NCBI GenBank assembly: GCA_037440405.1
Contig: JBBIUE010000005.1
Location: forward strand, 28,660-92,659
DNA length: 64,000 nt
Direction: 5' to 3'
DNA from: Pirellula sp.
GTDB taxonomy: Bacteria; Planctomycetota; Planctomycetia; Pirellulales; Pirellulaceae
The notes under the pieces are model-generated. The model did not search any database, had not been told where the DNA came from, and worked only from the letters and a program-made list of their open reading frames with translations. The translations under genes were made by a program, and so were the position numbers. Below are positions 589 through 53,188 of the stretch, one piece after another. Each line of letters begins with the position of its first letter. Within the stretch, counting starts at the first letter, position 1.

Positions 589-3500
589 ATGTTAAGTGCA
601 AACTGCCCCACGGAACAAGAGCTTCGCGATTACATTATAGGTCGACTCGGTGAGCGTGACTTGGAACCGATCAACCAGCATGTACTCGCATGTACTACCT
701 GCGAAAACACGATCACACGACTGGAGCAGGATTCGGATACCTTGGTTGAATTGCTGAGAAAGACGGACGTTCCTGAGGTGATGATTGATCCAAAAACAGA
801 TGGTCGCCAGCCTCGTGGAAACGAGGACCGGAAGGCAAACAAGGCTTTTCTACCAGAGCTTCCCAAAGCTTTAGGTCAATACGAGCTGTTATCGATTTTG
901 GGCCACGGCGGCATGGGAGCCGTTTATTTGGCTCGCCATCAGAGCTTGGATAAAAAGGTAGCGGTGAAGATTCTTCCTCCCCTACCGTCCACCAATGGTG
1001 AGTTTGTAGCTCGATTCCAACGCGAAATGCGAACCGCAGGCAAGCTCGATCATCCTGCCATCGTTCGGACGACGGATGCCGGTGAACAAGAGGGCTTCCA
1101 CTTTCTAGTCATGGAAGTCATTGATGGTTGGAATTTGAGTCAAATCGCTAGCCTGGAAGGATGCTTGAGAGTAGCGGATGCTTGCGAGCTGATCCGGCAG
1201 GCGGCGATCGGACTTGCCTACGCTCATGAGAAAGGCATTGTCCATCGAGATATCAAGCCTTCCAATTTAATGCTGGATCGGGAAAAGAAGGTCCGCATTC
1301 TCGATTTTGGGCTGGCGCAGGTAGGTTTTTGGGATTCGGAGTATGCCGAAATCACGACGGTTGGTCAGCTGATGGGAACGCTGGACTACATGGCACCGGA
1401 GCAAGCGGAACGTGGTGGAGCAGTCGATTATCGGGCTGATCTGTATTCACTTGGAGCGACTTTGTTTCGATTGCTGACTGGCAGGCCGCCATTGGCTCCT
1501 GCGCCCGACCTTTCACCCCTCGAAAAGCTTCGATTGCTCGCGACATCGAAGGCTCCCCGACTCCGATCGCTAATCCCCTCTGCGTCTCAACCCCTGTCTG
1601 AGGTCGTTGATGCCTTGCTATCGCGCAATCCCTCACAGCGTCCGGCAAGCGCCATTCATGTAGCAGAATCACTAGAGCCATTCTGCCGCGACGCTGATCT
1701 GGCAACGCTCCTCCAGCGAGCAGCCGCTCAGCCTCCTCGTGAAGATTCGGCAAGGAATATCCGACCTCGGCTACGCCGCAGTTTGAAACAAGGTGAACAC
1801 GAATGGAACACAGAGGAAGACGCAAAACCTTCCCATTTTCAAGACATGAACCATCCACTTGGTGGTCGAACTCGTTCCCCGTGGCGAACTGTTTTAGTCG
1901 CTTTGCTCACCGGTGCGTTCAGCATGATTTTCGCGGGCATTCTCTTCATCCTGGAGACAAGCAAAGGGAGCCTAGTCATTACCTCCGAAGTCGATGCACA
2001 CATCAAGCTATTACGGCACGACGAAACAGGAGAAGCAAAAGACCTGGGTGACATCGTTATCACGCCAGGTGCCCAAGTGACGCGACTTAAAAGCGGTCGC
2101 TATGAAATCATTCTCGACGGCCCCAGTGACGCATTCACGATCAACAACGGGGCGTTCTCCATCCGCAATGGGGAAACCGTCATCGCAACGATCACTCCCA
2201 AATTGGACTTCGCCTCGGGCTCCAATCCGCCAATCGCACAGCCGGCCTTATCACTAGCGACAAACGAGGTCGCGAACCCTCAACAAAACCCTTCGCGCCC
2301 ACCTGAAGCGACGTATCAAGGGAGAACACTGCAAGAGTGGTTGCAATCTCTTCAAGTGGAGCGCGACGAAATGGCAATAACCGAGGCGATTCAGGCTCTA
2401 TCGTCCTTAGAGGATGCGTCGAATCGCTCTCAAGTACGTGAGCACATCATTGCGTTCCTTCGACGTTCCCCTAGCTACTTCAAGCGTTTTCCCGTTGCCT
2501 TAATAGTTCTCCACAAATGTTCAGGAGAGGAGTTTCTCAATAGTGTGAATTTGCTGATCGAGGAGATGGCAGAAAATGAACGACCGCAAGGAGTACTCGC
2601 CTTGATGCCCTTTCTGGCGGATCCTCCCGAGTATGATTCTGCCAGCATGGAACGGCTTCTGAGTCACGTTGAATCGGCGCTTCACCACGCGGATTCTGAG
2701 GAGGCCCTAAAGTTGGCTTTGGCATTCCGCAGAATCGCATTTCTCACCCCAGCGAAGAAACTCACCTCACAACTGCAGTCACGGGTTCTCTTTATCTTTT
2801 CAAATACGCCGACACTGACTTTGGAAAACTTTTGGTTGAGTCCCAAGGATTTGCCCGTCGGCGGAGAGGCGCGTCTCAGTTCCTCCAAAATTCTCCTGCA
2901 GGAAATCGCTCGTAAAGCGCTGGCGGTACTGGATACGAAGGATGCCCATTCAGAACCACCACCTGCAACGCGGGCTCTCGCCTGGATCGTGTTGCGTTTG
3001 ATGATTCAAGACGGTTACACACTCTCCGACGACGAGAAGACCCAACTCCATGCCATACTGCGATCCACCCTAGAGCAACCCGATCTATCATTAGTCGAGG
3101 TCAACATCGAAAGGGTAACGGAAGCGATCGTTCTACCGAGATGGTTGAGTGCGAACATGTTCACCATGGTTCGGCAAGATGCAAAGAGCATTGCCTTTAC
3201 CAATCTGCAGATTCTGGCACTGAACACGATCGAGCAGGCGGGACTGCAAGAGCGATTTCAGGATGAGCTGCAAACGTTCTTGAAGAAACTCGATGACATG
3301 CCCTTGTGCTTTCTCGTTCTTTTGAACGTCGATTCAAGCAAACCTCTTTCTTGGGATGGCTGGATGCGCCAGAAGGATGAAAAGATCGAAACCGACATCT
3401 TGCTTGCGCAATTCCTCTACGGACAAACGGCCTCCATGCTGGGTGAGTCGCGAGATGCCATTTACGCTCGTTTTCGAGAACGCCGGTTAGTTGATGAAAA

Positions 3501-5130
3501 GTACTATGTCCGTGATTGGATCCGCAGATACGAAAAGGATCCGACTACATCAATTGGGTTGATCAAGTTCAACCTTCCCAGAGAGCCAGATGCATTCGTC
3601 GCCGAGTTTCTACGAAAGCATTTTGCGAATTGGATAGGAACCGGTTCTCGCACGATGATAGAAAGTGAAGAGAAGCTTGAGCTTTGGATTAGATCCGCTG
3701 GAGAAGGTTTCATGCCAGCTTTCGCAGAATTGATCCTCGAATCGACCAGCGATGTTCAAGAGATACTTCTTTCTGTGGATCTTTCGAAATATTCAACTCT
3801 CATCTGCAGTGATCCATCGTCCCTGGAGCGATTATTCCAATTGAGCGGCCATCGTTTCGAGGGACAAGCGAATATCTTGGACAATGTGCGGACGAGTCGC
3901 ATGCTCCGGTTTCTACGGAATTTGTTATCGGTTCGTTCGAAGGTCGGAATGAATGGTCAGCGCGCGATCATCGAGCATTTGGGGAAGTTTCCTCAGCTTA
4001 CCGATGAGACGTTTTGGCTCAACCATCAGACTTCAAATACGAATAACATAGAATCTGCTTTCAGCTTTGCAGCGCCAATGCGAGCGGAAAAACTTCGAAG
4101 GGCCATCGAGCTTCTGGAATCGAGACAGGTCAACGATGGACGCATTCGTTGCCAGGCTTGGATGATCGCCCGACGCTACTTCAGCGAACTCACAAGTTTA
4201 CCAGAGGCGTACTCCCAAAAGCTTCAACGGGCCATTGTCGAGACTTGTTCCGAAATGGATCTGATGAACAACCGCGAAGCAATGCTAAAACTGGAATTGG
4301 TACCAAGCATCTTCGAGCCTGATACTGTTCCCGCATTCGCTCCCCAAAAACTACGCGATGTCTCCGCACTAAGCTTTCCAATCATCGATCGCGTAAAAGC
4401 TCCTCGATATCGAGATCTGCAACCGATCGCTAACGAATTTATCCTGGCATTCAATCTCTTGCTCGACCAGCCAGAACCGATCAGGCTTCAACTGACCTCA
4501 CAATTCCAAAACAAGTTAGTCCAACTGTGCGATACAGTTGAGATGGAAAGTTTTCAGCTCCATCCATCAGGGTTTGATACGACGAGTGATGGAACCGTCG
4601 ATAGCATCCAGGAACGTACGAATCGATCATGGGTTCGTTTCGTCGGAAATCGGCTGACTCATGGCGGCCCCACTGAGCCGATGGTTTTGCATAGCTTACA
4701 CCTGCAAGCAGCCGCATTGCTCCAGAGAGATGTTAACGCGCTTGCCAATCGTCCATTCGACCGATATCGCGAATCAGAGCAAAAAAGGATTCGGGAGATT
4801 CAACCTAGAGACACCCTATCGATTTTTATTCCCGGAATTCTGCCGCAGAGTGGCGATCCGCCGGTTCTGCAGGCAGGAACGAAGCCGCCCGTCATCGGGT
4901 ATCCTGTCGTCGTAACCAAAGCGGGAACAATCGAGCTTCCGATTTTGGGGACGGTTGAAACAAAGGAATTGACCCCCGACCAATTGAGAGAGAGTATCGT
5001 CAAGAAGGCAGTTGAAACCTTGGGCACCGAACCCAAAGGGATTACGGTTCAGTTTCTGGTTCGCAGCGACGAGCTAGTGGAGTTGCGCAATATCGCTGGA
5101 CCGAACCCTCTACCACCCAAAATTCCGTGA
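589..5130 (+). CDS. Membrane Ser/Thr protein kinase with N-terminal ZAS (zf-HC2) anti-sigma-like motif and C-terminal Wza-type Poly_export domain
   Basis: 1513-aa ORF; ATG 589 is preceded by AAGGGAAG. The N-terminus has C6 ... H31-x3-C35-x2-C38 (NQHVLACTTCENT, nt 679-702). Hanks kinase motifs are GHGGMGAVY, VAVKIL, HRDIKPSNLML, DFGLA and MAPEQ. There is one TM helix (WRTVLVALLTGAFSMIFAGILFILE, aa ~432-456), then a beta-rich segment and ~900 aa of helical repeat. The C-terminal ~90 aa (nt 4798-5067), IQPRDTLSIFIPG...GYPVVVTKAGTIELPILGTVETKELTPDQLRESIVKK...ITVQFLV, fit the Poly_export (PF02563) pattern. Confidence 0.9.
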   Translation: MLSANCPTEQELRDYIIGRLGERDLEPINQHVLACTTCENTITRLEQDSDTLVELLRKTDVPEVMIDPKTDGRQPRGNEDRKANKAFLPELPKALGQYELLSILGHGGMGAVYLARHQSLDKKVAVKILPPLPSTNGEFVARFQREMRTAGKLDHPAIVRTTDAGEQEGFHFLVMEVIDGWNLSQIASLEGCLRVADACELIRQAAIGLAYAHEKGIVHRDIKPSNLMLDREKKVRILDFGLAQVGFWDSEYAEITTVGQLMGTLDYMAPEQAERGGAVDYRADLYSLGATLFRLLTGRPPLAPAPDLSPLEKLRLLATSKAPRLRSLIPSASQPLSEVVDALLSRNPSQRPASAIHVAESLEPFCRDADLATLLQRAAAQPPREDSARNIRPRLRRSLKQGEHEWNTEEDAKPSHFQDMNHPLGGRTRSPWRTVLVALLTGAFSMIFAGILFILETSKGSLVITSEVDAHIKLLRHDETGEAKDLGDIVITPGAQVTRLKSGRYEIILDGPSDAFTINNGAFSIRNGETVIATITPKLDFASGSNPPIAQPALSLATNEVANPQQNPSRPPEATYQGRTLQEWLQSLQVERDEMAITEAIQALSSLEDASNRSQVREHIIAFLRRSPSYFKRFPVALIVLHKCSGEEFLNSVNLLIEEMAENERPQGVLALMPFLADPPEYDSASMERLLSHVESALHHADSEEALKLALAFRRIAFLTPAKKLTSQLQSRVLFIFSNTPTLTLENFWLSPKDLPVGGEARLSSSKILLQEIARKALAVLDTKDAHSEPPPATRALAWIVLRLMIQDGYTLSDDEKTQLHAILRSTLEQPDLSLVEVNIERVTEAIVLPRWLSANMFTMVRQDAKSIAFTNLQILALNTIEQAGLQERFQDELQTFLKKLDDMPLCFLVLLNVDSSKPLSWDGWMRQKDEKIETDILLAQFLYGQTASMLGESRDAIYARFRERRLVDEKYYVRDWIRRYEKDPTTSIGLIKFNLPREPDAFVAEFLRKHFANWIGTGSRTMIESEEKLELWIRSAGEGFMPAFAELILESTSDVQEILLSVDLSKYSTLICSDPSSLERLFQLSGHRFEGQANILDNVRTSRMLRFLRNLLSVRSKVGMNGQRAIIEHLGKFPQLTDETFWLNHQTSNTNNIESAFSFAAPMRAEKLRRAIELLESRQVNDGRIRCQAWMIARRYFSELTSLPEAYSQKLQRAIVETCSEMDLMNNREAMLKLELVPSIFEPDTVPAFAPQKLRDVSALSFPIIDRVKAPRYRDLQPIANEFILAFNLLLDQPEPIRLQLTSQFQNKLVQLCDTVEMESFQLHPSGFDTTSDGTVDSIQERTNRSWVRFVGNRLTHGGPTEPMVLHSLHLQAAALLQRDVNALANRPFDRYRESEQKRIREIQPRDTLSIFIPGILPQSGDPPVLQAGTKPPVIGYPVVVTKAGTIELPILGTVETKELTPDQLRESIVKKAVETLGTEPKGITVQFLVRSDELVELRNIAGPNPLPPKIP

Positions 5131-9631: not shown

Positions 9632-11734
9632 ATGGGCAAAGTTCAGATTGGAAACCTTCGCAACATTGCGTTTTGTGGCCATAGCTACTCTGGCAAGACC
9701 ACGCTGCTCGATCATCTGCTGCTGGTAAGCGGAGCTGCTACGGGCCACCATAGCGTCGATGACGGGACGAGCATTTGCGATTTCGATGCTGAAGAAAAGT
9801 TGCATCACCACACCATCGAAACAAAAGTTGTTCACTGCAAATTTGGGGAAACGCAGTTGACACTGCTTGATACTCCGGGCTACCCCGATTTCGTTGGTCA
9901 CACGATTGAAGCTTTGGCCGCCGCCGATTGCGCGGCGATTTGTGTCAACGCCCATTCTGGAATTGAAGTTAACACGCGGCGAGTCGTTCGAGAGGCTCAG
10001 GAAGCTGGTCTGGCTTGCATGATCGTTTTAACACGACTCGATGGCGATAACATCGACATGGAGAAGTTAATGGAATCGCTCCGCGAAATGTTTGGTCCGG
10101 GCTGCGCGTTGATCAATGTTCCCCGTGGTCTTGGTCCCGACATCCATGGCGTCGATTGCGTATTCGAGGGCGAAGCGCATGGGGACGTTGTCATGGATCG
10201 CAGCCAGTTGTATCAGGAGATCGTCGAACGGATCGTGGAAGCGGACGAAGCGATGATGAACCGCTTCTTCGAGGGAAATTATCCAACTCCAGAAGAAATG
10301 AAGGCCCTTGTTCCCAAGGCAATGGCTGCCGGAACTTTGGTTCCCGTGTTCTGTACGGCGGCCAAAAATGACATCGGCCTCCCGGAATTGCTAGAGGGGC
10401 TCGTTTGGGCGACTCCGTCTCCCGATCACGTTCGGCGCGTCGCCACAGATGAAAACGGGGAAGAGGTTGATATCATTCAGTCCGCTGAAGGACCACTGAT
10501 TGCACGAGTCTTCAAGAATCGCATCGATCCGTTCGTTCAGAAGTTGTCCTTCATTCGCATTTATTCCGGCTACCTTGAAAAGGACATGATGGTTCATATT
10601 CAAGGCGTGAAGAAGGACCTGAAAATACCTCAGATCTTGGAGGTGCAAGCGGGTCAGACGCACCCCATCGAGCGCGCGGAAGCTGGGCAGATCGTTGCTG
10701 TCGCCAAGGTTGAGGACTTGCACATCGGAACGACGCTCGGCAGGTTCTCGCTTCCGAAGATCAAGTTTCCAACACCGATGGTCGGTCAAGCCGTCGCTCC
10801 GAAAGGTCACAGCGATGAGAACAAACTCTTCACCGCTTTGCACAAGCTTGTCGAAGAGGACCCGACCTTAAAGATTGAACGTGACGCTCAAACCAGCCAA
10901 CTGGTGATGACCGGTATGAGCGAAATGCATTTGACGTTCATCCGAGAGCGATTGCAGCATCGCGATCGACTGGAAATCGAAACCTCCGATCCAAAAATTC
11001 CCTTAAGGGAGACCATTCTGCAAACTGCGGAAGGCAGCTATCGCCACAAGAAGCAGTCTGGAGGCCGGGGCCAGTTCGGCGAAGTCCACATGCGGCTCTA
11101 TCCGCTTCCCAAAGGAACGGACATACAGGCCTTTCTGAGCAAAGAGCGATTTCCACATCTGAAGAATCATCACTACGATCCCGACACCAATTTCTTGTGG
11201 GTCGACACGGTCGTCGGTGGAACGATCCCAGGCAACTTCATGCCAGCCGTCGAAAAAGGGGTTCGCGAGCGGATGGTAAAGGGTGTTATCGCAGGCTATC
11301 CAGTGAACGATATTTGCGTCGAAGTCCATTTCGGCAAACATCATCCTGTCGATAGCAGCGAAGCGGCATTTAAGACGGCGGGCGCGATGGCCTTCCGCAA
11401 TATCTTTCGTGAAGCTCATCCCACGCTGCTCGAACCGATTGTCAAGATGGTCGTCACCGTACCGGAATCAAACGTCGGTGACATCTACTCGGATTTGAGT
11501 ACCCGTGGCGGCCGCGTGCATGGCAGCGATTCGGCAGGAGGCGGATTCTTCAGCATCCAGTGCGAAGCTCCATTGCGAGCGGCACTCCACTACGGTCGCG
11601 TCCTCAGCAATATCACCGGTGGCCAAGGCAGCTTCTCGATGGACTTTGACCGCTATGAAATCATGCCGGCCAATGCCCAGCAAGAATTCAAGTCGAAGGC
11701 CGATCTCAAGGACGAGGAAGGAGCCTTGGTGTAG
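9632..11734 (+). CDS. Elongation factor G paralogue with divergent GTPase motifs
   Basis: 700-aa ORF; ATG follows GAGGA. It has a P-loop (GHSYSGKTT), G3 DTPGYPDF (Tyr where translational GTPases have the catalytic His; nt 9881-9883), G4 TRLD instead of NKxD, and domain IV KKQSGGRGQFGEVHMRLYP. Length is full EF-G. Confidence 0.9.
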   Translation: MGKVQIGNLRNIAFCGHSYSGKTTLLDHLLLVSGAATGHHSVDDGTSICDFDAEEKLHHHTIETKVVHCKFGETQLTLLDTPGYPDFVGHTIEALAAADCAAICVNAHSGIEVNTRRVVREAQEAGLACMIVLTRLDGDNIDMEKLMESLREMFGPGCALINVPRGLGPDIHGVDCVFEGEAHGDVVMDRSQLYQEIVERIVEADEAMMNRFFEGNYPTPEEMKALVPKAMAAGTLVPVFCTAAKNDIGLPELLEGLVWATPSPDHVRRVATDENGEEVDIIQSAEGPLIARVFKNRIDPFVQKLSFIRIYSGYLEKDMMVHIQGVKKDLKIPQILEVQAGQTHPIERAEAGQIVAVAKVEDLHIGTTLGRFSLPKIKFPTPMVGQAVAPKGHSDENKLFTALHKLVEEDPTLKIERDAQTSQLVMTGMSEMHLTFIRERLQHRDRLEIETSDPKIPLRETILQTAEGSYRHKKQSGGRGQFGEVHMRLYPLPKGTDIQAFLSKERFPHLKNHHYDPDTNFLWVDTVVGGTIPGNFMPAVEKGVRERMVKGVIAGYPVNDICVEVHFGKHHPVDSSEAAFKTAGAMAFRNIFREAHPTLLEPIVKMVVTVPESNVGDIYSDLSTRGGRVHGSDSAGGGFFSIQCEAPLRAALHYGRVLSNITGGQGSFSMDFDRYEIMPANAQQEFKSKADLKDEEGALV

Positions 11735-11962
11735 AGTTGCTACGAAGCTGACGAGATTTTCTTGTCAAGTTCTCCAAAGAGACGAAGGTGTCGGGAACAC
11801 GGATTGTTTCTCGTTGTTTCCCGGCACCTCATTCGCTGGAGAAAGCACATTCCGTCCGCCGATGTCCTTGCGTGTACCAGTATCGTAGAGCCGATCGACA
11901 AGACCATGCGATGGAACGCCATCATCGAAGCAGTTCAGAACTCAATATGACTCAAGTCATCT

Positions 11963-12583
11963 GTGATTCGGGTCTCGGCCAAAATACCAATCGTCAAACT
12001 TTCGAGGAATCTTCCTGAAGTGACTCCCAAATTCTTCAAGAAGGCATCCGACTTCCGAGCTTGGCTTGACTTAAACCACGCGACCAAAAACGAGTTGCTG
12101 GTTGGTTTTTGTAAGGTTGGTTCAGGCAAGCCGAGTATGACGTGGTCGGAGTCCGTCGACGAGGCACTGTGCTTTGGATGGATCGATGGTGTCCGAAAGC
12201 GAATCGATGATGAATCGTATTCCATCCGTTTTACGCCGCGACGAGTAGGTTCAATCTGGAGTCGCGTCAATATTGCGAAGGTCGAGCAATTGATCGCTCA
12301 GAATCGAATGCGACCAGCGGGACTCGCCGCCTTCGAGGCTCGGAGCAGCAAGAAGACCGGCGTTTACTCCTTCGAGCAGGAACATAAGATCGAGCTTAGC
12401 GATTCGGAGCTAATTGAGTTCCAGAGAAATAAGGCTGCGTGGCGATTTTTCGATACGACTCCACCAAGCTACAAAAAGACGATCATCTACTGGATCGTCA
12501 GTGCAAAGCGACCAGCCACGCGAACTCGCCGCCTTGAGGAGCTCATACAGGCCTGCTCCGAGCACAGACGCCTTTTGAAGTAG
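11963..12583 (+). CDS. YdeI/OmpD-associated (DUF1801-like) family protein
   Basis: 206-aa ORF. FRAWLDLNHATKNELLVGFCKVGSGKPSMTWSESVDEALCFGWIDGVRKRIDDESYSIRFTPRR..S.WS..N and the C-terminal SYKKTIIYWIVSAKRPATRTRRLEELI match the family pattern. The exact start is uncertain. Confidence 0.75.
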   Translation: MIRVSAKIPIVKLSRNLPEVTPKFFKKASDFRAWLDLNHATKNELLVGFCKVGSGKPSMTWSESVDEALCFGWIDGVRKRIDDESYSIRFTPRRVGSIWSRVNIAKVEQLIAQNRMRPAGLAAFEARSSKKTGVYSFEQEHKIELSDSELIEFQRNKAAWRFFDTTPPSYKKTIIYWIVSAKRPATRTRRLEELIQACSEHRRLLK

Positions 12584-12814
12584 TGTTAACCTTTCGCAAA
12601 CTTGGAGGATCGACTACGAATCAAATCGCATTCGTACGTTCCGCAATGCGAATGTTGATGCTGGCATGTCGAAGCTGGATCGCCATGCACGCTCAAAATT
12701 TCATCAGCAAAGATCATGGAATTGCGGAACGGATACCTTCCACGGCATATCGAGTGATCAACGGTTGCGCAGCATTGAAACAGGCAGCAAACGTTCCGCA
12801 GAAGCCAGAGCGAA

Positions 12815-14245
12815 CTACTTCGGTTGCGCTTTCGTCGCCTTCTTGGGTTCGGTTTTTGGCATCACGGTTTTGCTACGCTTGGGAAATGGTGCCGACTCGA
12901 CCCAATCAGGGATACCACCGGCAGCCTCGATTTCGGTCATCGACAGAACAGTGAGTCCTGGAAGAAGAGAGTTGCATTTCTTGACGATAGCGCGATGGCG
13001 ACTGGGATCGACTATCAGAGCACATGGGAAGTGGCGCTCGGCGGCCCGGTGGGTATACCGAATCTCTTCGATATTCTGAACCAAGTTCGACGACGCGCGA
13101 TCGCGAGCCATTCGAGCTTCAACTTCCGGTGCCAAAATCAAACCTCGAACGAAATCCGTGTCTCGACGAAACCGAGCACACAACCAGTTGGCAAGTACCA
13201 ATCGGCAGTTGGCAATCGTTTCGTCAAGTTGGTCGGCTGCGTCCCAGTTATACTTCAAAGTGGATAGGATTTGCTGAACTGGGCGAACGGTGCAGCGATC
13301 CTCGACCAACTGATGGAAAACAGTGTGGACATTCGCCACGGTCGAGCTGCGATCAATGACGTCTTCGATCAGTGAAGGGCAAATCAACCGTGTTTGTTGA
13401 ACAAGTTTGACCGTTTGATCGAACGTGTAGAATCGAGCTAAGTGTCGGACGAGGAGTGACCGGAAAAACGAGAAGAAATACTCGGACGAAGACATCGTTG
13501 GTACGTTGCGACCTTCCGAAGTAACTTCAACCGACTCGTCGATGAAAAAGCCCGGAGCCATCCAAATCGCATCGCGAGTTTCATGAATGCAAGCAGAAGA
13601 ATCCTCGCTGAGATCGCACTCTTCCAGCAAAGCAAAAGCGAATTTCTGTCTGGGAGGAAAATAACCAGCACCCAATTCAAGCGCATGCCAACGAAAATGC
13701 GCTGCGTGGGGAGAAATCTCCTCACACTCATGGATGCGGATGGCAGGGAGAGAAAATCCGTATTCGTCGGAGAGTTGGTGTCGAATCTTTGCTAAACGTG
13801 TGGGAAGCGATACTGCGCCATCTCGAAGGCGTGCGAACAACTCTGTTCCAAGCATTAACTCCATCTGACGATTGTCGCGGACAGCGGCCGGTTCAGGTTC
13901 TGCTTCCGTGGAATCCGCAACGTTTTCGGTCGAAGTCGGTTCGACATCGGAAAACAAAGGCTCTAGACTCTCGTCAGAACAGGAAATGGAAACGACCTGG
14001 GGAAAGAGAACGATTGTTTCTTTTCCCCCTCCAGGCTTCCTGCGATTGCGTTCTTCTTCTCTCATGGAAGAGTACCAATTGCTCTCGTCGTAGTCGTCGA
14101 GTCGCTCAGCATCCGTCATGCAGATGCCGCCATCGACCAAACCAACCAGACGACCGATAAATCGATGGCCGCCAAAGGTGAATACGGTAACGCACCGACC
14201 TACATAGCGTTTGAGGGTCTTGTCTAAGTCTTCTGACAGATACAC
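12815..14245 (-). CDS. Soluble FlhA/SctV C-terminal (FHIPEP cytoplasmic) domain homologue with LSm-like N-terminal domain
   Basis: 476-aa ORF with a GTG start. aa ~10-50 (LKRYVGRCVTVFTFGGHRFIGRLVGLVDGGICMTDAERL) are Sm-like, followed by an acidic linker. aa ~128-450 are colinear with FlhA-C blocks: RLAKIRHQLSDEYGFSLPAIRIHECEEISPHAAHFRWHALELGAGY; VHTVFHQLVEDRCTVRPVQQILSTL; ALIVDPSRHRAIVKKCNSLLPGLTVLSMTEI. No hydrophobic TM segment is present. The tail is Lys-rich. Confidence 0.75.
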   Translation of the reverse strand: MYLSEDLDKTLKRYVGRCVTVFTFGGHRFIGRLVGLVDGGICMTDAERLDDYDESNWYSSMREEERNRRKPGGGKETIVLFPQVVSISCSDESLEPLFSDVEPTSTENVADSTEAEPEPAAVRDNRQMELMLGTELFARLRDGAVSLPTRLAKIRHQLSDEYGFSLPAIRIHECEEISPHAAHFRWHALELGAGYFPPRQKFAFALLEECDLSEDSSACIHETRDAIWMAPGFFIDESVEVTSEGRNVPTMSSSEYFFSFFRSLLVRHLARFYTFDQTVKLVQQTRLICPSLIEDVIDRSSTVANVHTVFHQLVEDRCTVRPVQQILSTLKYNWDAADQLDETIANCRLVLANWLCARFRRDTDFVRGLILAPEVEARMARDRASSNLVQNIEEIRYTHRAAERHFPCALIVDPSRHRAIVKKCNSLLPGLTVLSMTEIEAAGGIPDWVESAPFPKRSKTVMPKTEPKKATKAQPK

Positions 14246-14526
14246 GTTACGTCCTTTCGGCCAGCCTAACCACTTTCGTGTCTACATACTTCCTCATATC
14301 ATGATACACAAAAGGGGAGATTCGGTTCGGCCACGCTTGCGAAGAATTCTGCAAAACGCGCATGCATCGCTAGGCAGGGCAGCGAGCATTTTAGGCAATT
14401 TGCTTATCGGAGGTTCCCAGCAGGCTTCCAAGTTGGTAGCCTGAGAGAGAAGTATGTTGTCGTTCTCTCTGCCAGCCTGTTGGCTGTTTCCATCACAAGA
14501 GCCTGCTTGTCACGACTGGATGCTCA

Positions 14527-15384
14527 ATGTCATTGCAAATCTACATCTCTGGTCAATTCTACAGCAAGGAAGATGCGAAGATCAGCGTTTACGATCACGG
14601 CTTGCTGTATGGCGACGGAGTATTTGAGGGAATGCGTTCGTACTCCGGTAAGGTCTTTCGACTCCGAGAGCACTTGATCCGTCTTTACGAATCGGCAAGG
14701 GCGATCTATCTCCAAATTCCGATCGAACTTGAGGCGCTAGGTGAAGCTGTCAATGAAACGCTGCGGCGGAATTCACTTTCGGATGCTTACATTCGACTGG
14801 TGGTGACTCGTGGTGCTGGAAGTTTAGGGCTGGATCCCAATCGAACCAGCGATCCGCAAGTGATTATTATCGCCGATCATATCGCGTTGTATCCTCAAGA
14901 GTACTATGACCGGGGGTTGGAAATCGTTACGGCCAGTACGATACGCAGCCATCCCAACGCGATGAATCCTCGCGTCAAGTCGCTGAACTATTTGAATAAT
15001 ATCATGGCCAAAGTCGAGGGATTGCAGGCTGGATGCATCGAGGCCCTGATGTTGAATCACAAAGGCGAGGTTGCCGAATGCACGGGAGACAATATCTTCA
15101 TTGTTCGCAGAGGCGAACTGTTGACGCCTCCGGCTGATGCCGGGATTTTGGAAGGTATCACTCGTGGAGCGATCTTGGAGCTGGCGTCCGAGCTCGGAAT
15201 CTCTGCGATTGAAAGGACACTCACCCGACATGATGTCTATGTCGCCGAAGAGTGTTTCCTGACGGGCAGCGCCGCCGAGGTCATTCCAGTAGTCAAAGTC
15301 GATGGACGAGCGATCGGTAATGGCGCTGTTGGTCCAACGACGAAGCAATTGATGGCGGCATTCAAGAGGTTCGTGCATTCTTGA
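14527..15384 (+). CDS. ilvE: Branched-chain amino acid aminotransferase (class IV)
   Basis: 285-aa ORF. ISVYDHGLLYGDGVFEGMRSYSGKVFRLREHLIRLYESA plus NYLNNIMAK and LTPP...ILEGITR are typical of IlvE. D-amino-acid aminotransferase cannot be fully excluded. Confidence 0.85.
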   Translation: MSLQIYISGQFYSKEDAKISVYDHGLLYGDGVFEGMRSYSGKVFRLREHLIRLYESARAIYLQIPIELEALGEAVNETLRRNSLSDAYIRLVVTRGAGSLGLDPNRTSDPQVIIIADHIALYPQEYYDRGLEIVTASTIRSHPNAMNPRVKSLNYLNNIMAKVEGLQAGCIEALMLNHKGEVAECTGDNIFIVRRGELLTPPADAGILEGITRGAILELASELGISAIERTLTRHDVYVAEECFLTGSAAEVIPVVKVDGRAIGNGAVGPTTKQLMAAFKRFVHS

Positions 15385-16178
15385 AAGATTGGTTTGCGAT
15401 GGCTTCCTGCCGATTTGACAAGTTGGTCATTGCTTTTCTCGCGATTGTTGCAACAGTCGTGCCTCCTCTCTCCGCTCAGCAAGCGTCGGCAACTGCCATC
15501 GTCGGAAACGAAACGGATGCACCGATCCCAAAACCGAAGACTCGTTACCTGGGACGCACCATCGCGCCCACCATGAGTTTTGAAGGTGCTTGGTGGCTAA
15601 TCCGAGGTACGCGAGATCAGGAAGAGAATCCGGAGGCCATGGTTGAGCAACTGAAACTGAAACCAGGCATGACGGTTTGTGACCTCGGATGTGGAAACGG
15701 CTTCCACACAATTCCCATGTCAAAAATCGTGGGGAAAGATGGAAAAGTGTATGCTGTCGATGTCCAGCCGGAGATGCTGGAAATGTTATCTCGGCGAATC
15801 GACGAGGAAAGAATCGAAAATATTGAGCTTCTACTTGGTAGCGTTATCGATCCCAAACTTCCCGAAGGAGAGCTGGACCTAGTGCTGATGGTCGATGTTT
15901 ACCATGAGTTTTCCCATCCCGATTTGATGCTTTCGAGAATCCGCAAGTCCTTAAAGCCGGATGGAGTGGTTGCACTCGTCGAGTTCCGAGGAGAAGATCC
16001 CACCGTTCCCATTCTACCTCTTCACAAGATGACCAAAAAACAAATCCATCGTGAGTACAATGCGAATGGGTTCAAGTTGCGATCTGAGTTCGATGGACTA
16101 CCGATCCAACACCTCATGTTTTTTGAAATCGATGACACCTGGACTTCTGAGGAAGATGGGGCCAGCGTGAAAAAATAG
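15381..16178 (+). CDS. Class I SAM-dependent methyltransferase with N-terminal signal-like segment
   Basis: VCDLGCGNGFHTIPMSKIVGKDGKVYAVDVQPEML (motif I/post-I) and LVLMVDVYHEF. The N-terminal hydrophobic stretch is LVIAFLAIVATVVPPLSAQQASA. The likely real start is ATG 15399 (MASCRF...); 15381 is a TTG overlapping the ilvE stop. Confidence 0.8.
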   Translation: MKDWFAMASCRFDKLVIAFLAIVATVVPPLSAQQASATAIVGNETDAPIPKPKTRYLGRTIAPTMSFEGAWWLIRGTRDQEENPEAMVEQLKLKPGMTVCDLGCGNGFHTIPMSKIVGKDGKVYAVDVQPEMLEMLSRRIDEERIENIELLLGSVIDPKLPEGELDLVLMVDVYHEFSHPDLMLSRIRKSLKPDGVVALVEFRGEDPTVPILPLHKMTKKQIHREYNANGFKLRSEFDGLPIQHLMFFEIDDTWTSEEDGASVKK

Positions 16179-30363: not shown

Positions 30364-32325
30364 TCAAGATTCTTCGTCGGATCGCAATCGAGCCAGTACG
30401 GAATAATCTTCGAGCGTTGTCGTGTCACCGACTTGCTCCCTGCCACTGGCAATGTCACGAAGCAATCGTCGCATAATTTTTCCGCTGCGAGTTTTGGGTA
30501 GGGCTGTGGTGAACCGTATCTCGTCCGGCTGCGCGAGAGCACCGATTTCTTTGCGGACATGCAGCTTCAGCTCACTTCGAAGCTGCTCGTCAGGAGCATG
30601 GTGTTTAAGGGTGACGAACGCTGCGATGCCCTGACCTTTGATCTCGTCCGGCTTCCCAACGACGGCGGCTTCGGCAACGTTTGGGTGACTTACAAGCGCG
30701 CTTTCGATTTCGATGGTACTCAATCGATGTCCTGCGACATTGATGACATCATCGATCCGCCCCATGATCCAATAGTATCCATCCTCGTCTCGACGTGCAT
30801 TGTCGCCAGTTAGATACTGGTGTGGAACCTTCGACCAATAACCGTCAACATAACGTTGGTCGTCCCCCCAAATTCCTCTCAGCATCCCGGGCCACGGTTT
30901 GGCAATACACAACATGCCCCCATGATTGGTTTCAACTTCGTGAAAACTGCTGTCGACGATGCTTGGAACGATACCTGGAAGTGGTCGCGTGCAACTTCCT
31001 GGTTTCGTCGCAATGGCTCCCGGAAGTGGTGACATCATGATCCCTCCGGTTTCGGTCTGCCACCAAGTGTCAACGATCGGGCAGCGACCACCACCAATCT
31101 TGTTGTAATACCACATCCACGCTTCCGGATTGATTCCTTCTCCTACCGAACCCAACAGCCGCAGACTCGACAGATCATGCTTGTCGACGTGAGCGTCTCC
31201 CCACTTGATAAAGGCGCGAATCGCAGTCGGAGCCGTGTAAAGAATGGTTGCACGATAGCGTTCAATGATTTCCCAGAATCGGTCCTCCGCAGGCCAGTTC
31301 GGGGCTCCCTCGTACATAATTTGAGTCGCTCCCGCCGACATCGGTCCGTAGACGATGTAACTGTGACCGGTAATCCATCCACAATCGGCCGTACACCAAA
31401 AGATGTCCGAATCACGGAAATCGAAGACCAGTTCGAACGTGTACTTGGCGTAGAGATTGTAACCAGCGGTGGTGTGCCGAATCCCCTTAGGTTTTCCGGT
31501 CGAGCCGCTCGTGTAGAGAATGAATAAAGTGTTTTCGCTCTCGACCGGCTCAGCGGGACAAAGGTCGGACGCTTGTTCTAGGACTTCGTGCCACCAGAGA
31601 TCGCGACCGGAGGTCATCGGACATTCCCCACCGATGCGCTGATAAACAATACACCTTTCGACTGACGGACTTTTGGCTAGTGCTTCGTCGACGGTCGCCT
31701 TAAGTGGAAGCACCTTTCCCCGCCGCCAGCCGCCGTCTGCGGTGATTTGAAGCTTGGCTTTCGCGTCGTTGTTCCGGTCAGCCACTGCTTCAGCACTAAA
31801 ACCACCGAAAATGACGGAATGCACTGCACCAATCCGAGCGCAAGCCAGCATAGCAACCACAAGCTCAGGAACCATGGGCATATAGATGCTAACCACGTCC
31901 CCTTTCTTGATTCCGAGCGACTTCAGAACATTCGCAAATCGGCAAACATCGCGATGTAAATCAGCGTAGCGGACAATCCGTCGATCGCCAGGTTCACCCT
32001 CCCAGTAAAAGGCAACGCGATCACCTCGCCCGGCTGTCACGTGAGCATCCAAGCACTGATAGGAAGCGTTCGTCTTCCCATCCGAGAACCACTTTGCGAA
32101 AGGTTCGTCCCATTCCAATGTCGTACTGAAAGGTTCGAACCAATGAAGATGTTGTTTCGCCAGATTTGCCCAGAACGCTTCGTTGTCTCGAATCGACTCG
32201 GCATACAGCTCTTCGTAAGCCTGAAGCGATGAAATTCGAGCCCGTCGAACGAAGTCAACACTTGGAAGAAACTTGCGAGTTTCCTGCATTACATTGACAA
32301 CTTTGTCAGAGATTACTTGGTTCAT
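30364..32325 (-). CDS. acs: Acetyl-CoA synthetase (AMP-forming)
   Basis: 653-aa ORF with [39 protein letters not shown] and [18 protein letters not shown]. Confidence 0.95.
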
Positions 32326-32350
32326 GGTACCTTCCTGGATCGATGAGCCA

Positions 32351-34429
32351 TTAGTCGTCGGAGTCCTTTGGTTTCTTCTTCTCTTTCTCTTTCTCTTTCT
32401 CTTTCGCTTTCTCTTTCGTCTCCGCCTTGGCGTATTCTTCTTTTTCCTTTACCGCTGCTTTGAACCGTCTCAGATAATCGTTGTTCATCTCGCGAATTTC
32501 GTCCGGAGTCAAAGCTTTTTGAGAATGGCGTTCATCGACTTCGATCTCTTTGGAGCCTTTGGCACGTGACTGCTGGAAAAATTCGTTGAGCCGATTTTGC
32601 TGCTCAGCCAAACGTTTCACCTCCAAACTTAACTGTTTGAAGGCCATTTCCATATCTTTTTCTTTCTCACGCGATTGTTTCTCGACATTTTCCCGGTCCA
32701 ATCGCATGCGGGCTTCTTCCATCCTTTGTTGTGCTTGCATCGCTTGCTGGCGGGCAAGCTGCTGCCTTTCTTCCCATTCCACTCTTACTTTCGAGAGTTG
32801 ATTGCGTGCTTCTTCATTGGCTTGATTGAGTTGACGATTCTCGCGCTCCAATTGTTCGATTCGCTGCCGCATCTGCTCCATTCGTTCGCGTGTTTCGGCC
32901 AGCTCTCGTCGGTGCTGTTCTTGGTTGGCTTCTGGTGCGAACTGTCCCATCCTGTGCGGTGCTTCCGAGGGCATTTGCATCGGTGGATGGTGTGGTTGTG
33001 GGGCACTTGGCATCGGCTGAAAATTTGGAGGTGGTACTGGAATGAAGTTCTGGCTTGGATGTCCTGAGGGGCCTGGCATCCTCTGTTGCATTTCGTGCAT
33101 ACCCGGGTGATATTGGTGTCTTGCGTCAGCTTGAATTTGCCGAGATTGAGGAGCTGCCGGAACAGCAATTCTTGCCTGATCAACAGCAGCATGCGGTGAC
33201 TTGCTCTGCGTTTCGATCGCAACGACCAAGCGGTTGATGGCGGCGATCAATTCGCCTAGCTCGGCATGTTCATGCTTCCCTCCATTTCCGCATTTCGCGC
33301 AGTCGCCTTTACAAGACTCGCTACATTCTTTTGCTTTCTCGCACGTGGAATCTTTTGCTTCGTCGCAAGAGGTGATAGACGCATTCGCACATTTCTCGCA
33401 TTTCTGGCTGCACTCTGCAGATGGCTTCTCGGCGCCATCGCTGCAGGTGTCCGACTTCTTTCCGCATTCGCCGCCACAGTCCGTCTTGCCCGCCGTACAT
33501 ACTTCGCCGCAGGACTTGCTCTCCGTGCGCTCCGTTTTATCGCAATTTTCCGAGCAAGTTTGCTTGTCACATTCCGACGCGATTTCCGACGAATTCACCG
33601 ATTTACATGACTCGCATGCAGAGGTGCAAGCTTGCGATTTCCCCTCGCAGTGTTCGCACTTTTGTGCCTGGCAAGTGGACTCTGCATTCGCTGAATCGCA
33701 TTCTGGGGTCTGATCGCACTGCTCCGTCTGATCACAGGCTTTCGTCTCAGCCTCGCAACAAGGTACGTCATCCGAGCACCCTGTCGCATCGTCGTTGGAG
33801 TTAGTCACGAGGCTGACGAATTCGATGCCATGGTTCGAGGGAAACGTTGATGCGTTCGTATTCTCTGATGGGACGTTCGACTCGCTGGACGGGTTCGATA
33901 AAACGGCGCTGCGATTCTCGTCTTCATCGATTGCCGTTTGGGTCGCTTCGAAATGCTCGTTTTGCGGTTCGTAAGCTGAACGCGGTGCCGGAATTAAGTC
34001 ACCCGATGGACTCGGCGTTTTCTCTGGAACCTCGAACACGCGAACGTTAAGTAAGGTCGCACCTTGGGGAAGGTCTAATTCACTGATGACTCTCTGACGA
34101 ACCGTTAGGGGTAGGCTCGTTAGTCCGATCTGCGGAGCGGGTGCTTCACCCACAATCGGAGCTTGAATGGCTGCTGCCGCAGACGCTACGGGACGGGGAA
34201 GGACCGCAGAACCAGTTCCGATCGAAAGAGTCTGAATCCGATTCAGCGGAGGCAAGCCCAAGCGTTCGCGACATACATCGCATTGCATGACATCCGCTGG
34301 ATAAATGGCGGCAAGTTGTGCCTCCCTCGCCGAATGTTGGTCTTGAGCTAGTGCCTGTGGACTGATCGTCAAGATCGCGGCAGCAGTCAGATACAAGAAG
34401 CCGACAATCATTTGGCGAAGGCGAGGCAT
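32351..34429 (-). CDS. Secreted Cys-rich / His-Met-Pro-rich / coiled-coil protein with KE-repeat tail (function unknown)
   Basis: 692-aa ORF with signal peptide [28 protein letters not shown]. aa 218-380 contain 29 Cys and no Phe/Trp/Tyr/Leu/Met. aa ~436-500 are His/Met/Pro-rich ([21 protein letters not shown]...[18 protein letters not shown]). aa ~500-640 are E/R/Q-rich heptad-like. The tail is [21 protein letters not shown]. Confidence 0.8.
32381..32416. repeat. Hexanucleotide microsatellite (CTCTTT)n, 5 perfect + 1 imperfect unit, inside the 3' end of the Cys-rich gene
   Basis: Read directly: ctctttctctttctctttctctttcgctttctcttt. On the coding (minus) strand this is (AAAGAG)n, encoding the (K-E)n tail. 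Confidence 0.85.
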
Positions 34430-43910: not shown

Positions 43911-43957
43911 CTTCAAAATTGAGTGTGACTGAGAGTAAACCCAGCCAAAATAAACAA

Positions 43958-45607
43958 CTAGCAGCCGCAGCCACCGCAACCGCTGTTGCAGCCACCGCAA
44001 CCACCGCGTCGCATGATTCCCATGCGACCACCGCAATTGCCGCTCATGCTGCCGCAGCCATTATTGACCGGAACAGTGATGGTCTGAGGGACCATGCGGC
44101 AAACAGTAACATCGACCTCTTCTTGAACCGTTTGAGGGACGCATACCTTGTAGGTCTCGGTCTTCTCTTCCTGAACGCAATCGTACACGGTTACGTTGTA
44201 GGTTCGACTTCGTTGTTCAGGAACCATGACGGTGCAAGCAACTTCCTTCATCTGTACCTGTTGCTCACAGGTCGTAACGTCAACCATCCGCGACCTTTCA
44301 ACGGGAGTGCAAACAACTCGGGTCACAGGACGAGTACGATTTTCCATTTCGCAAACCGTCTTCGAAACTTGATAGGTCCGAGTCTGCGGCTGCATGGTAC
44401 ATTGCTTGACAGTACGGGTCTTTTCAACCGTCTGATACGATACTTTGTTGACCGTGCGAGTCTTGGTCTCAGGAGTGTAAACGCACTTCTTGACCGTGCG
44501 CTGTCGCGGTTCAGGCTTGCAAACGGTGACGTTGTACGTGTAAGGCTCGTCAACCATTTGAGTTTGGTAGGTCGTGTTGGGAACTTCTTCCGTCACAACG
44601 TTTGGAACCCAAACTCTGCGAGTAACGGTTTGCATGGTCGGACCACATCCGCAACCGGAGTCAACGGATCCGCCACAATCGCCGCAACCGGAAGAACATC
44701 CGGAAGAGCATCCACCGCAATCCGATGCACAAGGTGCTGGAGCGCATCCGCCGCAGCTTCCGCAACCTCTGCGACCGCGAAGCAATCCACAGCCTGCCAG
44801 AAGTCCGCGACGTCCGCCGTAAGAAGAGTAACCGACGGAAGCTCCGCAGGCATTCGAGACCGGAACTTCTTCCGTAACGCATTGGTACGAGCCCATGTCT
44901 CTTGTGACCGTTCTCGTTCCATTAACAGCAATCGTCTTGCAAACCTTTCGGACGCCTTCACGTGTTTCCACATGTGGGACCATCACGGTGTAGTCAACAA
45001 CTTCCTCAACATAGGAAGGAGTATTGACTACATAGGTTTCCTCAACCGGAGTCACAACGGCTTCGCAAACTTTGTAGGTCTGTACAACGTCCGAGTAAAC
45101 GGGAACCATTACGGTGCAAGTGCGATCTTCTACAACCACGCGCGATACTGGAACGGTGTAGCTCACGTCTTCTGTAACTGTCGAACGCTGCATTTCAACG
45201 TACTTCTGCTCGACCTGCTTCGTCACAGGCACGTTAACGGTTACGGAGACCTGCTTCATTTCCGTCTTTGGAACCATGACCGTATAGTTTTCGGTCTTGG
45301 TTTCTGTGCGAGGTACTCGCTTCGTCACGGTGTAGGTGCGAGTTCGGTCTTCCATCGTATTAACCACTTTGGTAACCATTCTCTTCTCTACAACCTGTTG
45401 AGGCACCATCACGGTACGCTCGACATAAGTCACGCCGCAATCGGCCGCGACAGCACCGCCGCCGCAACCGCCACAATCAGCAGACGTAGCTGGTGTTCCG
45501 CCGGAACAGCCACCACATCCCCCGCAACCGCCGCAATCAGCGGATGCTCGCACCGCCCCGAATAGCATCATGGCAAGTGCGAAGGTGTAAACCAATTTCA
45601 ATCTCAT
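43958..45607 (-). CDS. Secreted YTV-repeat protein with three Cys/Gly (CGGC)n clusters (planctomycete wall-type protein)
   Basis: The start is set at ATG 45607 (GGAG 6 nt upstream; MRLKLVYTFALAMMLFGAVRASA signal). The N-terminal cluster is CGGCGGCGGCSGG..CGGCGGG. Then come T/V/E/K/R-rich repeats with four exact YTV tripeptides (TYTVT, NYTVM, SYTVP, DYTVM) plus CTV/YNV/YQV/YKV variants. The central cluster is CGSCGGCAPAPCASDCGGCSSGCSSGCGDCGG..GCGCG and the C-terminal one is GGCGGCNSGCGGCGC. A terminator follows downstream. Confidence 0.85.
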   Translation of the reverse strand: MRLKLVYTFALAMMLFGAVRASADCGGCGGCGGCSGGTPATSADCGGCGGGAVAADCGVTYVERTVMVPQQVVEKRMVTKVVNTMEDRTRTYTVTKRVPRTETKTENYTVMVPKTEMKQVSVTVNVPVTKQVEQKYVEMQRSTVTEDVSYTVPVSRVVVEDRTCTVMVPVYSDVVQTYKVCEAVVTPVEETYVVNTPSYVEEVVDYTVMVPHVETREGVRKVCKTIAVNGTRTVTRDMGSYQCVTEEVPVSNACGASVGYSSYGGRRGLLAGCGLLRGRRGCGSCGGCAPAPCASDCGGCSSGCSSGCGDCGGSVDSGCGCGPTMQTVTRRVWVPNVVTEEVPNTTYQTQMVDEPYTYNVTVCKPEPRQRTVKKCVYTPETKTRTVNKVSYQTVEKTRTVKQCTMQPQTRTYQVSKTVCEMENRTRPVTRVVCTPVERSRMVDVTTCEQQVQMKEVACTVMVPEQRSRTYNVTVYDCVQEEKTETYKVCVPQTVQEEVDVTVCRMVPQTITVPVNNGCGSMSGNCGGRMGIMRRGGCGGCNSGCGGCGC

Positions 45608-46514
45608 CGGAAACTCCAAAAACAAAGAAAAGTGACCCGAAGGTTCACAAAACCCAAAAATGGGACTTGACTCAATGAACTGCTAAACCACCCAATAGTG
45701 GGATTGGACTCAGAACGATAGCTTATACTTTGTGCAATGAATAGAAGATTCTAGCTGAAGGTTCTGTGTACGGAAGGTATTGCCGGAAAAATTCCCGCAT
45801 TTTTTCTGTTTTAACAATTCTGGCTGATTCAAAGCCAATCGTCTTCAAATTGGGTGTATTGCGATGAGTTTGACGACGTCTGCCGTCTCTCCATTGTGGT
45901 GACTGTAAACGAATGTAATTCCTGCGGAATGCGATTCGTAAAACAAGAGAAGAAATGAGGGCAACAGGCTATGTCGAGATCTGCGAATGGATTTGCTCGA
46001 CTGACACAGCCTTCATCGAGTGAGATTCCTGTTGAGTGGTCAAGATGTTGGAGACGCATGAGCTAGGACTCTCAAGGCGATCGCCAATCGAATCAAACGA
46101 TTCCCAGGACTCGCAGCATCTTCATGATGTGAGCCTTGCCAATTCGTCGAGCGTATGGTTCGTTCAACTCGGTACCGCTCGCACTTGCGAATCGAACGCA
46201 AGAAAATGAACGACAAAATGACGCATATTTGCGACTCGCGTTGCGACGCGATCCAACAGTTCAAAGTTCAAAGTCGGCAAACAATTTCGAGAAAACGTTC
46301 GCAGCTAGCCGATAATGCGTTGGATAAAACTTCGGTTCCTCGGTGTGCTGAATACTCCTGAAGTCGAATAACCAGCGCGATGCGACGGAACCTGTAAGGT
46401 TGAACGCATTATCTCGCGAATCTATACTTAACGCAGAGAATAAACTGTTAGTAGGGATCAAAGCACTGGGTTCGATATGGAAGGCCCTTTTGAGAAGTTG
46501 ACGGTGACAGTCCC

Positions 46515-53064: not shown

Positions 53065-53114
53065 CCACACCACCTCGACTAAGAGACTCGATTCAATCCG
53101 CCGTGACGCCTCAG

Positions 53115-53188
53115 AGCCAGCGATGGGAGTCGAACCCATAACCCCCGCATTACGAATGCGGTGCTCTGCCAATTGAAGCTACGCTGGC
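53115..53188 (-). tRNA. tRNA-Thr (anticodon CGU)
   Basis: Folded by hand from the reverse complement: GCCAGCG TA GCTT CAATTGGCA GAGC A CCGCA TTCGTAA TGCGG GGGTT ATGGG TTCGACT CCCAT CGCTGGC T. This gives a 7-bp acceptor stem, a 4-bp D stem, a 5-bp anticodon stem with a 7-nt loop (anticodon CGT), a 5-nt variable loop and a T arm with TTCGA. Length is 74 nt and no CCA is encoded. Confidence 0.9.

Follow-up and report, generated by a model that had tools for sequence, protein, structure and literature searches.

The cytoplasmic domain of the flagellar protein FlhA (FlhA-C) is among the best-studied docking rings of bacterial secretion, and is regarded only as the part of a membrane gate that faces the cytoplasm. 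In Salmonella, export chaperones bind to a dimple of FlhA-C, and the FlhA linker, with residues E351, W354 and D356, competes with the chaperones for this dimple and also stabilises the nonameric ring (PMC8166844). Partners of FlhA-C are FliH, FliI, FliJ, FlhB-C, FliS-FliC and FliT-FliD (PMC3139655). A soluble version of this domain is encoded in Pirellula sp. (Planctomycetota; Pirellulaceae), within a stretch of 64,000 nucleotides of contig JBBIUE010000005.1 (assembly GCA_037440405.1, forward-strand positions 28,660 to 92,659) that was analysed as a whole and is called the window below. The gene occupies positions 12815..14245 on the minus strand of the window. Its 476-aa product is a membrane-free FlhA paralogue having an Sm-like barrel in place of the eight-helix membrane domain, an acidic linker, complete subdomains D1–D4 and a basic tail. 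This architecture is previously undescribed yet widespread, and it is built from two known folds. A sequence-only reading of the window, made without database searches, had proposed such a fusion and knew of no precedent; in full-text literature searches, of incomplete coverage, neither an Sm-FlhA-C protein nor soluble planctomycete FlhA-C paralogues were found to have been described.

The open reading frame (ORF) is intact, with the position and length given by the sequence-only reading. It starts with GTG, which has an AAAGGA box (14252–14257) 7–12 nt on its 5′ side, and ends with a stop codon at 12815–12817. Its extent as a gene for a soluble Sm-like and FlhA-C protein follows from the ORF list, the Pfam FHIPEP match, the AlphaFold2 model and hydropathy.

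Residues 128–449 (12899..13864, minus strand) constitute the FlhA/SctV cytoplasmic domain with subdomains D1–D4, as expected by the sequence-only reading and as judged from Pfam, Foldseek and signature residues. The protein matches Pfam FHIPEP (PF00771) with an E value of 1.2e-28 and 100.5 bits (curated cut-off 29.1), and the match, at aa 112–441, covers profile positions 317–654 of 657, i.e., the cytoplasmic half alone; positions 1–316, the N-terminal part of the profile, are unmatched. Among NCBIfam models, flagellar FlhA (TIGR01398) scores best, with E 1.9e-25, and three SctV-type models follow at 8.8e-12 or weaker; all these matches lie far under the equivalog cut-offs, which apply to full-length proteins (about 89 bits vs 772 in the case of TIGR01398). 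Significant sequence matches in the PDB are restricted to FlhA-C and SctV-C structures (crystal or cryo-EM chains). In Foldseek comparisons of the predicted structure with the PDB, the best 50 matches are all FlhA-C or SctV-C, with E values down to 5.6e-20 and target TM-scores up to 0.74, and they come from Salmonella, Helicobacter, Bacillus and Vibrio as well as from Chlamydia CdsV, InvA, MxiA, YscV, SsaV and the SctV of enteropathogenic Escherichia coli. The signature residues R155, G163, P167, L313, I326, R348 and E438 are conserved in the protein.

The membrane domain is missing, again in agreement with the sequence-only reading. No membrane segment was found anywhere in the protein, the highest 19-residue Kyte-Doolittle mean being 1.16; full-length FlhA proteins from the same search reach 2.8–3.5 and have 5–8 such segments. 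Canonical full-length FlhA of 687–690 aa is also present in metagenome-assembled genomes (MAGs) of Pirellulaceae, hence the soluble protein is an additional paralogue and not a split FlhA.

In place of the membrane helices the protein has a head domain (aa 1–90; 13976..14245, minus strand) with the predicted topology of an Sm-like beta-barrel, assigned from the AlphaFold2 model, from comparison of a family profile with the PDB and from hhalign. The AlphaFold2 model built on an alignment of 52 family members (A4) has a mean predicted local distance difference test score (pLDDT) of 86.6 and a predicted template modelling score of 0.71; the pLDDT of a model from a 3-sequence alignment was only 40.9. 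The head is modelled, at pLDDT 80–95, as a helix (3–12), strands 18–23, 27–37 and 40–50, a second helix (56–68) and strands 76–80 and 84–89, thus one helix at the N-terminus and then a five-stranded antiparallel sheet with a strong bend, as is characteristic of the Sm fold. The peptide on which the sequence-only reading had based its Sm/LSm barrel of aa ~10–50, LKRYVGRCVTVFTFGGHRFIGRLVGLVDGGICMTDAERL, is located at aa 11–49; the fold it proposed agrees with the model and the profiles, whereas the span was too short, the modelled barrel extending over aa 3–90. Between Sm strands 3 and 4 there is a family-specific insertion (aa 51–75, DDYDESNW...; 14021..14095, minus strand; AlphaFold2 secondary structure) containing the 56–68 helix and the near-invariant Trp57, which is kept in at least 90% of the 52 members and sits in a 13-residue insertion relative to the Sm profile.

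Profile searches point in the same direction. When a 34-sequence N-domain profile (A5) is compared with all PDB sequences, the best match is an archaeal protein of 71 aa, 1ycy, which we take to be an Sm-fold protein, at E 7.5e-5. It is followed by 21 Sm-fold chains (LSm, Sm, Hfq and Edc3-LSm) at E 0.007–1.5, so that Sm-fold proteins, recognised mostly by their names, make up 22 of the 24 matches listed. Alignment of the same profile with canonical eukaryotic and archaeal Sm sequences by hhalign gives a probability of 78.7% and P 1.7e-5 over 74 columns, covering both the Sm1 and the Sm2 segment and leaving the family insertion as a loop; the alignment lends support without being decisive, because the Sm sequences were entered by hand. 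Sub-threshold Pfam matches to LSM, RimP_C, DUF6897 and SM-ATX were obtained in 12–15 of 34 members, and in no member does the LSM match reach the gathering score (best E 4.3e-4). Searches of Pfam, NCBIfam and PADLOC returned no model for the head, and none that describes the architecture as a whole. An earlier profile of only four N-domain sequences (A3) had matched the designed TPR-like repeats 4y6w and 4y6c; these matches were rejected as a summed-repeat artefact without any single significant stretch, and they were gone with the deeper profile. The predicted structure and the profile matches thus lead to the conclusion that the head has a Sm-like fold at the superfamily level.

The sequence-only reading had called the barrel RNA-binding in type. 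This holds for the fold and not for the residues, as the Asp/Asn of Sm1 and the Arg-Gly of Sm2 that form the RNA pocket align by hhalign to variable family columns. The conserved head positions in the family alignment are instead R13, Y14, G31, L43, W57 and E76. RNA binding by the barrel is therefore possible but unsupported. The head is the most constrained part of the protein, its identity to the closest homologues being 71–73%, vs 33–37% in FlhA-C and about 20% in the linker.

The head and FlhA-C are joined by a linker (aa 91–127; 13865..13975, minus strand) that is acidic, as the sequence-only reading had noted, and disordered by pLDDT (below 50 at aa 101–117). It is net-negative in 100% of family members, with a median charge of −9, the same as in the window protein (−9 over aa 89–128). 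At the other end, FlhA-C is followed across the family by a tail of about 35 residues. In the window protein the tail comprises aa 450–476 (12818..12898, minus strand), carries a net charge of +6, has low confidence in the AlphaFold2 model and ends in -QPK. Counts of end motifs show that P-[RK] stands at the very C-terminus in 36 of 62 members (58%; consensus R-x-P-R), and about 2% would be expected from tail composition; the same end was seen in 0 of 58 membrane FlhA and in 0 of 13 other soluble FlhA-C proteins. The window protein ends with ...KAQPK, and Q474, P475 and K476 are invariant in its clade.

The sequence-only reading had regarded the protein as an orphan, and this is not the case. 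The family was revealed by an exhaustive search of 1.84 billion cluster representatives (50% identity), which gave 297 matches at E ≤ 1e-3; a word-index search returned only 4 matches with the full protein, 0 with the four-sequence N-domain profile and 7 with the 52-member alignment, and a scan of metagenomes for the N-domain with 6 sequences yielded 3 loci. The N-domain stands at the N-terminus and is followed by FlhA-C in 60 of the 152 nearest cluster representatives. Nearly all Sm-headed members have 420–570 aa, save four short fragments, and all 52 aligned full-length members are above the Pfam FHIPEP threshold (best E 6e-85). The closest homologues have 469 aa, are 39–43% identical to the window protein and are colinear with it from the first to the last residue, and two close homologues are located in Pirellulaceae MAGs. 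One 90% cluster contains proteins of two cultured strains, Bremerella sp. P1 (WP_274334150.1, complete genome CP118164.1) and Bremerella sp. JC770 (WP_366974492.1), of a genus that belongs to Pirellulaceae. RefSeq lists both as "FHIPEP family type III secretion protein"; JGI names for other members are "flagellar biosynthesis component FlhA" and "hypothetical protein." Within this family, which is found in Planctomycetota (Pirellulaceae, including cultured Bremerella), the window protein forms a divergent branch, and the gene is selectively maintained, with purifying selection across the diverse planctomycete family. In a neighbour-joining tree of FlhA-C domains, 53 of the 62 Sm-headed proteins fall in one split (F1 0.88), the tree being too noisy for strict monophyly. 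One member appears split in one assembly: P0156 (292 aa) and P0157 (122 aa), of the P0024 cluster and from ENA contig(s) of equal length (8212 bp), represent the N-domain and the FlhA-C part between them, probably as a result of a frameshift or an assembly error. The short N-domain matches P0099, P0116 and P0090, seemingly stand-alone, may likewise be fragments.

The residues by which FlhA-C is recognised were compared after Salmonella numbering had been fixed via the D456V and F459A crystal chains, a Salmonella segment having been aligned with FlhA-C domains from both the family and membrane FlhA proteins. Across the family, R391, G399, P403, D409, Y418, W465, L544, E547 and R579 occur at frequencies almost the same as in membrane FlhA, and so do the dimple residues D/E456, P457, F459, G460, T490 and H491. 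At D456, F459 and T490, respectively, 88% of members have E/D, 85% F/Y/W and 64% T. The acidic position at the Salmonella A576 column is lost family-wide. In the window protein, the crystal-chain and family alignments identify D225 (D456 in Salmonella), W228 (F459) and S259 (T490) as dimple counterparts (13469..13573, minus strand).

Both genes flanking the ORF are on the opposite strand, therefore it forms a single-gene unit, as the sequence-only reading had it. Downstream and convergent is a gene of the OmdA/YdeI family (11963–12583, plus strand). Upstream, and divergent as that reading also stated, are a class-IV aminotransferase gene resembling ilvE (PF01063; 14527–15384, plus strand) and a methyltransferase gene, the two together covering 14527..16178 (Pfam). 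They are retained beside the gene in five loci (L001–L005), and this synteny is kept only within the clade of the window protein. The 281 bp shared with the ilvE-like gene (14246..14526) contain the ribosome-binding site and presumably the promoter; a sigma-70 promoter of consensus type was not found there, and promoter and terminator scans were no better than on shuffled sequence. Rfam elements were not found in 11500–15000, in and around the gene, and no PADLOC defence model matches the Sm-headed protein. The Pfam scan of the window took in every ORF of 200 aa or more that was considered a genuine gene and three shorter ones, with exclusion of three shadow ORFs inside longer genes. Flagellar and injectisome families were absent from the ORFs scanned, in line with the sequence-only reading, which had seen no such gene in all 64 kb; most ORFs below 200 aa were left unscanned, and small flagellar genes are possible among them. 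The scan did detect families that are planctomycete hallmarks (PSCyt1/PSCyt2/PSD1, DUF1501, DUF7133 and sulfatases). In 12 distinct contexts, including the complete Bremerella genome, the gene stands alone with one copy per locus. A DUF7133-type giant protein was the single neighbour recurring between distant loci; it was judged a coincidence and taken as a common planctomycete paralogue. In Bremerella sp. P1 (locus L012, CP118164.1 3408938–3430452, with genes at 2395–3252 on the minus and 10001–11515 on the plus strand), a class-IV aminotransferase lies on the upstream side about 7 kb off, and may be a faint remnant of the synteny of the window clade or a matter of chance.

A docking platform is the most economical model, because FlhA-C docks export partners and Pirellulales make motile cells; members of this order alternate between sessile and motile cells (PMC7716846). 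The protein is tentatively read here, with a little less than an even chance, as a cytoplasmic ring-forming docking platform or regulator that acts on flagellar export partners. It would be a free cytoplasmic platform related to the flagellar export gate, in which the Sm-like barrel, FlhA-C or both would drive ring-type self-assembly and the barrel would substitute for the tethering or multimerising role of the lost membrane domain. By its FlhA-C surface the protein would bind the usual partners, i.e., export chaperone-substrate complexes and proteins of FliJ/FliH/FliI type, and as planctomycete cells change between sessile and motile forms, the platform would buffer, sequester or time the export of flagellar proteins. 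By analogy with the FlhA linker, which competes with chaperones for the dimple, the acidic linker and the basic C-terminal motif would probably serve as auto-regulatory or partner-binding peptides. In a more specific and rather unlikely version, an Sm-type ring would replace the membrane ring as a hub, with several FlhA-C domains attached to it by acidic tethers, and the resulting self-assembling, membrane-free export-gate platform would be a cytoplasmic particle capturing flagellar or other chaperone-cargo complexes and possibly RNA. If true, this would mean that Planctomycetota have a control layer of their own for type III export, new in kind, or that they use the FlhA-C ring in an entirely new way.

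Several observations weigh against the docking platform. In the clade of the window protein the dimple has drifted, with F459 replaced by W228, G460 by M or H, T490 by S259 or A, H491 by F260 and Y418 by A or C. R506, an Arg in 89% of membrane FlhA, is replaced family-wide by Y, L or F. At the place equivalent to Salmonella E351/W354/D356, a hydrophobic-acidic motif is missing from the window linker (…EPAAVRDNRQMELMLG). Flagellar genes were not found within 8–10 kb of the gene in the contexts annotated with Pfam, and the 12 contexts have no conserved neighbour, an all-against-all comparison revealing sharing only among close relatives, which makes guilt by association uninformative. Finally, Sm rings are usually 6–7-mers and FlhA-C rings 9-mers, thus a simple stacked-ring model may fail.

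The main rival, which is possible and on the doubtful side, is exaptation to a non-flagellar role, with FlhA-C acting as a general protein or ligand docking (sensor or scaffold) module and the barrel serving oligomerisation or nucleic-acid binding. The absence of flagellar neighbours from all contexts examined speaks for it, and so do the loss of the linker motif and the several altered dimple residues in the window clade. Furthermore, soluble FlhA-C also occurs with unrelated heads, including TIR_2 (P0140), a helix-turn-helix (HTH) of XRE type (P0145), DUF2283 (P0109) and others without a Pfam match, so the domain serves in other settings than the export gate as well. However, a change of ligand is not expected for the Sm-headed family, since it retains the dimple and signature residues at the frequencies of true FlhA. 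Moreover, the family comes so far from Pirellulaceae, which encode canonical FlhA and belong to an order that makes motile cells, and no PADLOC defence model is matched. The link to RNA drawn by the sequence-only reading leads to another model, in which an RNA, such as the leader of a flagellin mRNA or a small RNA, would be bound by the barrel and thereby linked to the docking surface of FlhA-C, similar to the FliW-CsrA-FliS-FlhA circuit. Bacillus FlhA-C belongs to such a circuit of post-transcriptional flagellin homeostasis (PMC6070490), and an Sm-like fold in the most conserved region of the protein would fit. This model is nonetheless unlikely, given that the pocket positions of Sm1 and Sm2 fall on variable columns, the Pfam LSM match is sub-threshold in every member, a strongly acidic linker comes after the head, and no Rfam element is present in or around the gene.

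A soluble FlhA-C might also act as a poison subunit, inserting into or capping the nonamer of membrane FlhA and so stopping export, for example when the swarmer flagellum is shed. Defective full-length FlhA variants are dominant-negative by incorporation into the apparatus (PMC3139655), and the FlhA-C core of the family is conserved. Some members have just before the first D1 strand the counterpart of the ring-stabilising motif, R-[IVW]-E-D-x-L, through which the FlhA linker binds the neighbouring subunit (PMC8166844). The motif is missing in the window clade and R506 is altered family-wide, which leaves this an improbable explanation. Practically no weight is given to the last alternative, that the ORF is the 3′ part of a broken flhA or an assembly or annotation artefact, for which the bare absence of the membrane domain speaks and nothing else. 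The 281 bp upstream form a divergent intergenic region, beyond which the opposite strand encodes the ilvE-like gene, the first 96 residues are a folded, highly conserved domain that starts at the first codon in five homologues, and the same architecture is found in 60 diverse clusters and in complete genomes. By this evidence the remnant or pseudogene reading is refuted. The view of the ORF as a gene in its own right also agrees with synteny, the start, the intergenic region and the ilvE-like gene being kept in homologues of about 40% identity.

If the docking platform is the right model, a conserved and diverse family in which FlhA-C is freed from the membrane means that planctomycetes may regulate flagellar export by a soluble mimic of the gate. 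If the domain has instead been exapted, FlhA-C may lead another existence, unconnected with type III secretion. There is also a practical side for annotation, as the current names ("flagellar biosynthesis protein FlhA," "FHIPEP family type III secretion protein") could inflate the counts of flagellar and type III secretion system genes in planctomycete genomes and MAGs.

Other features of the window were observed in passing. A minus-strand gene at 51748–53172 encodes a 474-aa protein with tetratricopeptide repeats and two RNA polymerase alpha-subunit C-terminal domains (PF03118, two stretches, E 1.4e-40), which is an unusual architecture for the latter domain. The 692-aa ORF at 32351–34429 (minus strand) has no Pfam match and lies where the AT skew of the window is strongest (−0.285 at 32001–34000); its product begins much like a signal peptide and continues with a long, acidic middle of low complexity, rich in Cys with spacing of C-x-x-C type, a Pro/Gln-rich part and a Lys/Glu-rich, coiled-coil-like end. 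At 589–5130 (plus strand) lies the gene of a 1513-aa Ser/Thr protein kinase (Pkinase E 6.7e-47) with a Poly_export match at its extreme C-terminus. Two ORFs of ~550 aa, 43919–45565 (plus strand) and 43958–45625 (minus strand), overlap almost fully on opposite strands, neither of them with a Pfam match.

Compared with the known systems, the window protein is nearest to FlhA. It has the same complete cytoplasmic domain D1–D4, by profile and predicted structure, and most signature residues are common to both, the D456/F459/T490 dimple being kept in the wider family; by NCBIfam it is closer to flagellar FlhA than to the SctV models. It differs from FlhA in the missing membrane domain of about eight helices, in its N-terminal domain, in the acidic linker, which in the window clade is devoid of an E351/W354/D356-type motif, and in the extra tail with a C-terminal P-K/R. 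In addition, the soluble gene is not encoded beside other export genes, as seen in the scanned ORFs of the window and within 8–10 kb in the other contexts. Because the membrane domain is lacking and the gene context is not that of an export gene, the protein is a FlhA homologue by domain content only and not a functional member of the export-gate family. The SctV proteins of injectisomes (InvA, MxiA, YscV, CdsV) share the fold of its C-terminal domain (Foldseek E 1e-15 to 1e-18), but the sequence similarity is weaker than to FlhA, the membrane domain sets them apart and injectisome genes were not detected in the window.

The head is comparable to Sm, LSm and Hfq proteins and their relatives (RimP C-terminal domain, DUF6897, DUF2642 and archaeal 1ycy), with which it shares a helix followed by a bent sheet of five strands, as well as profile similarity across Sm1 and Sm2. 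It departs from them by the helical insertion of ~25 residues that separates strands 3 and 4 and carries a conserved Trp, by the lack of conserved RNA-pocket residues, by scores under the Pfam gathering threshold and by fusion to a domain of 320 residues. Parallels in overall design are other soluble FlhA-C fusions, in which the same membrane-free FlhA-C follows a small N-terminal head; the heads (TIR_2, HTH_3 and DUF2283) are different, and none of 13 such proteins has the P-[RK] end. More membrane-free FlhA-C proteins were seen outside the window (P0033, P0058, P0113, P0134 and P0139/P0086, besides P0140, P0145 and P0109), and the PADLOC match among these other soluble proteins is only through the HTH. 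The TIR and HTH fusions hint at a sensor or defence-like use of the FlhA-C fold, as a sensor module that can be reused.

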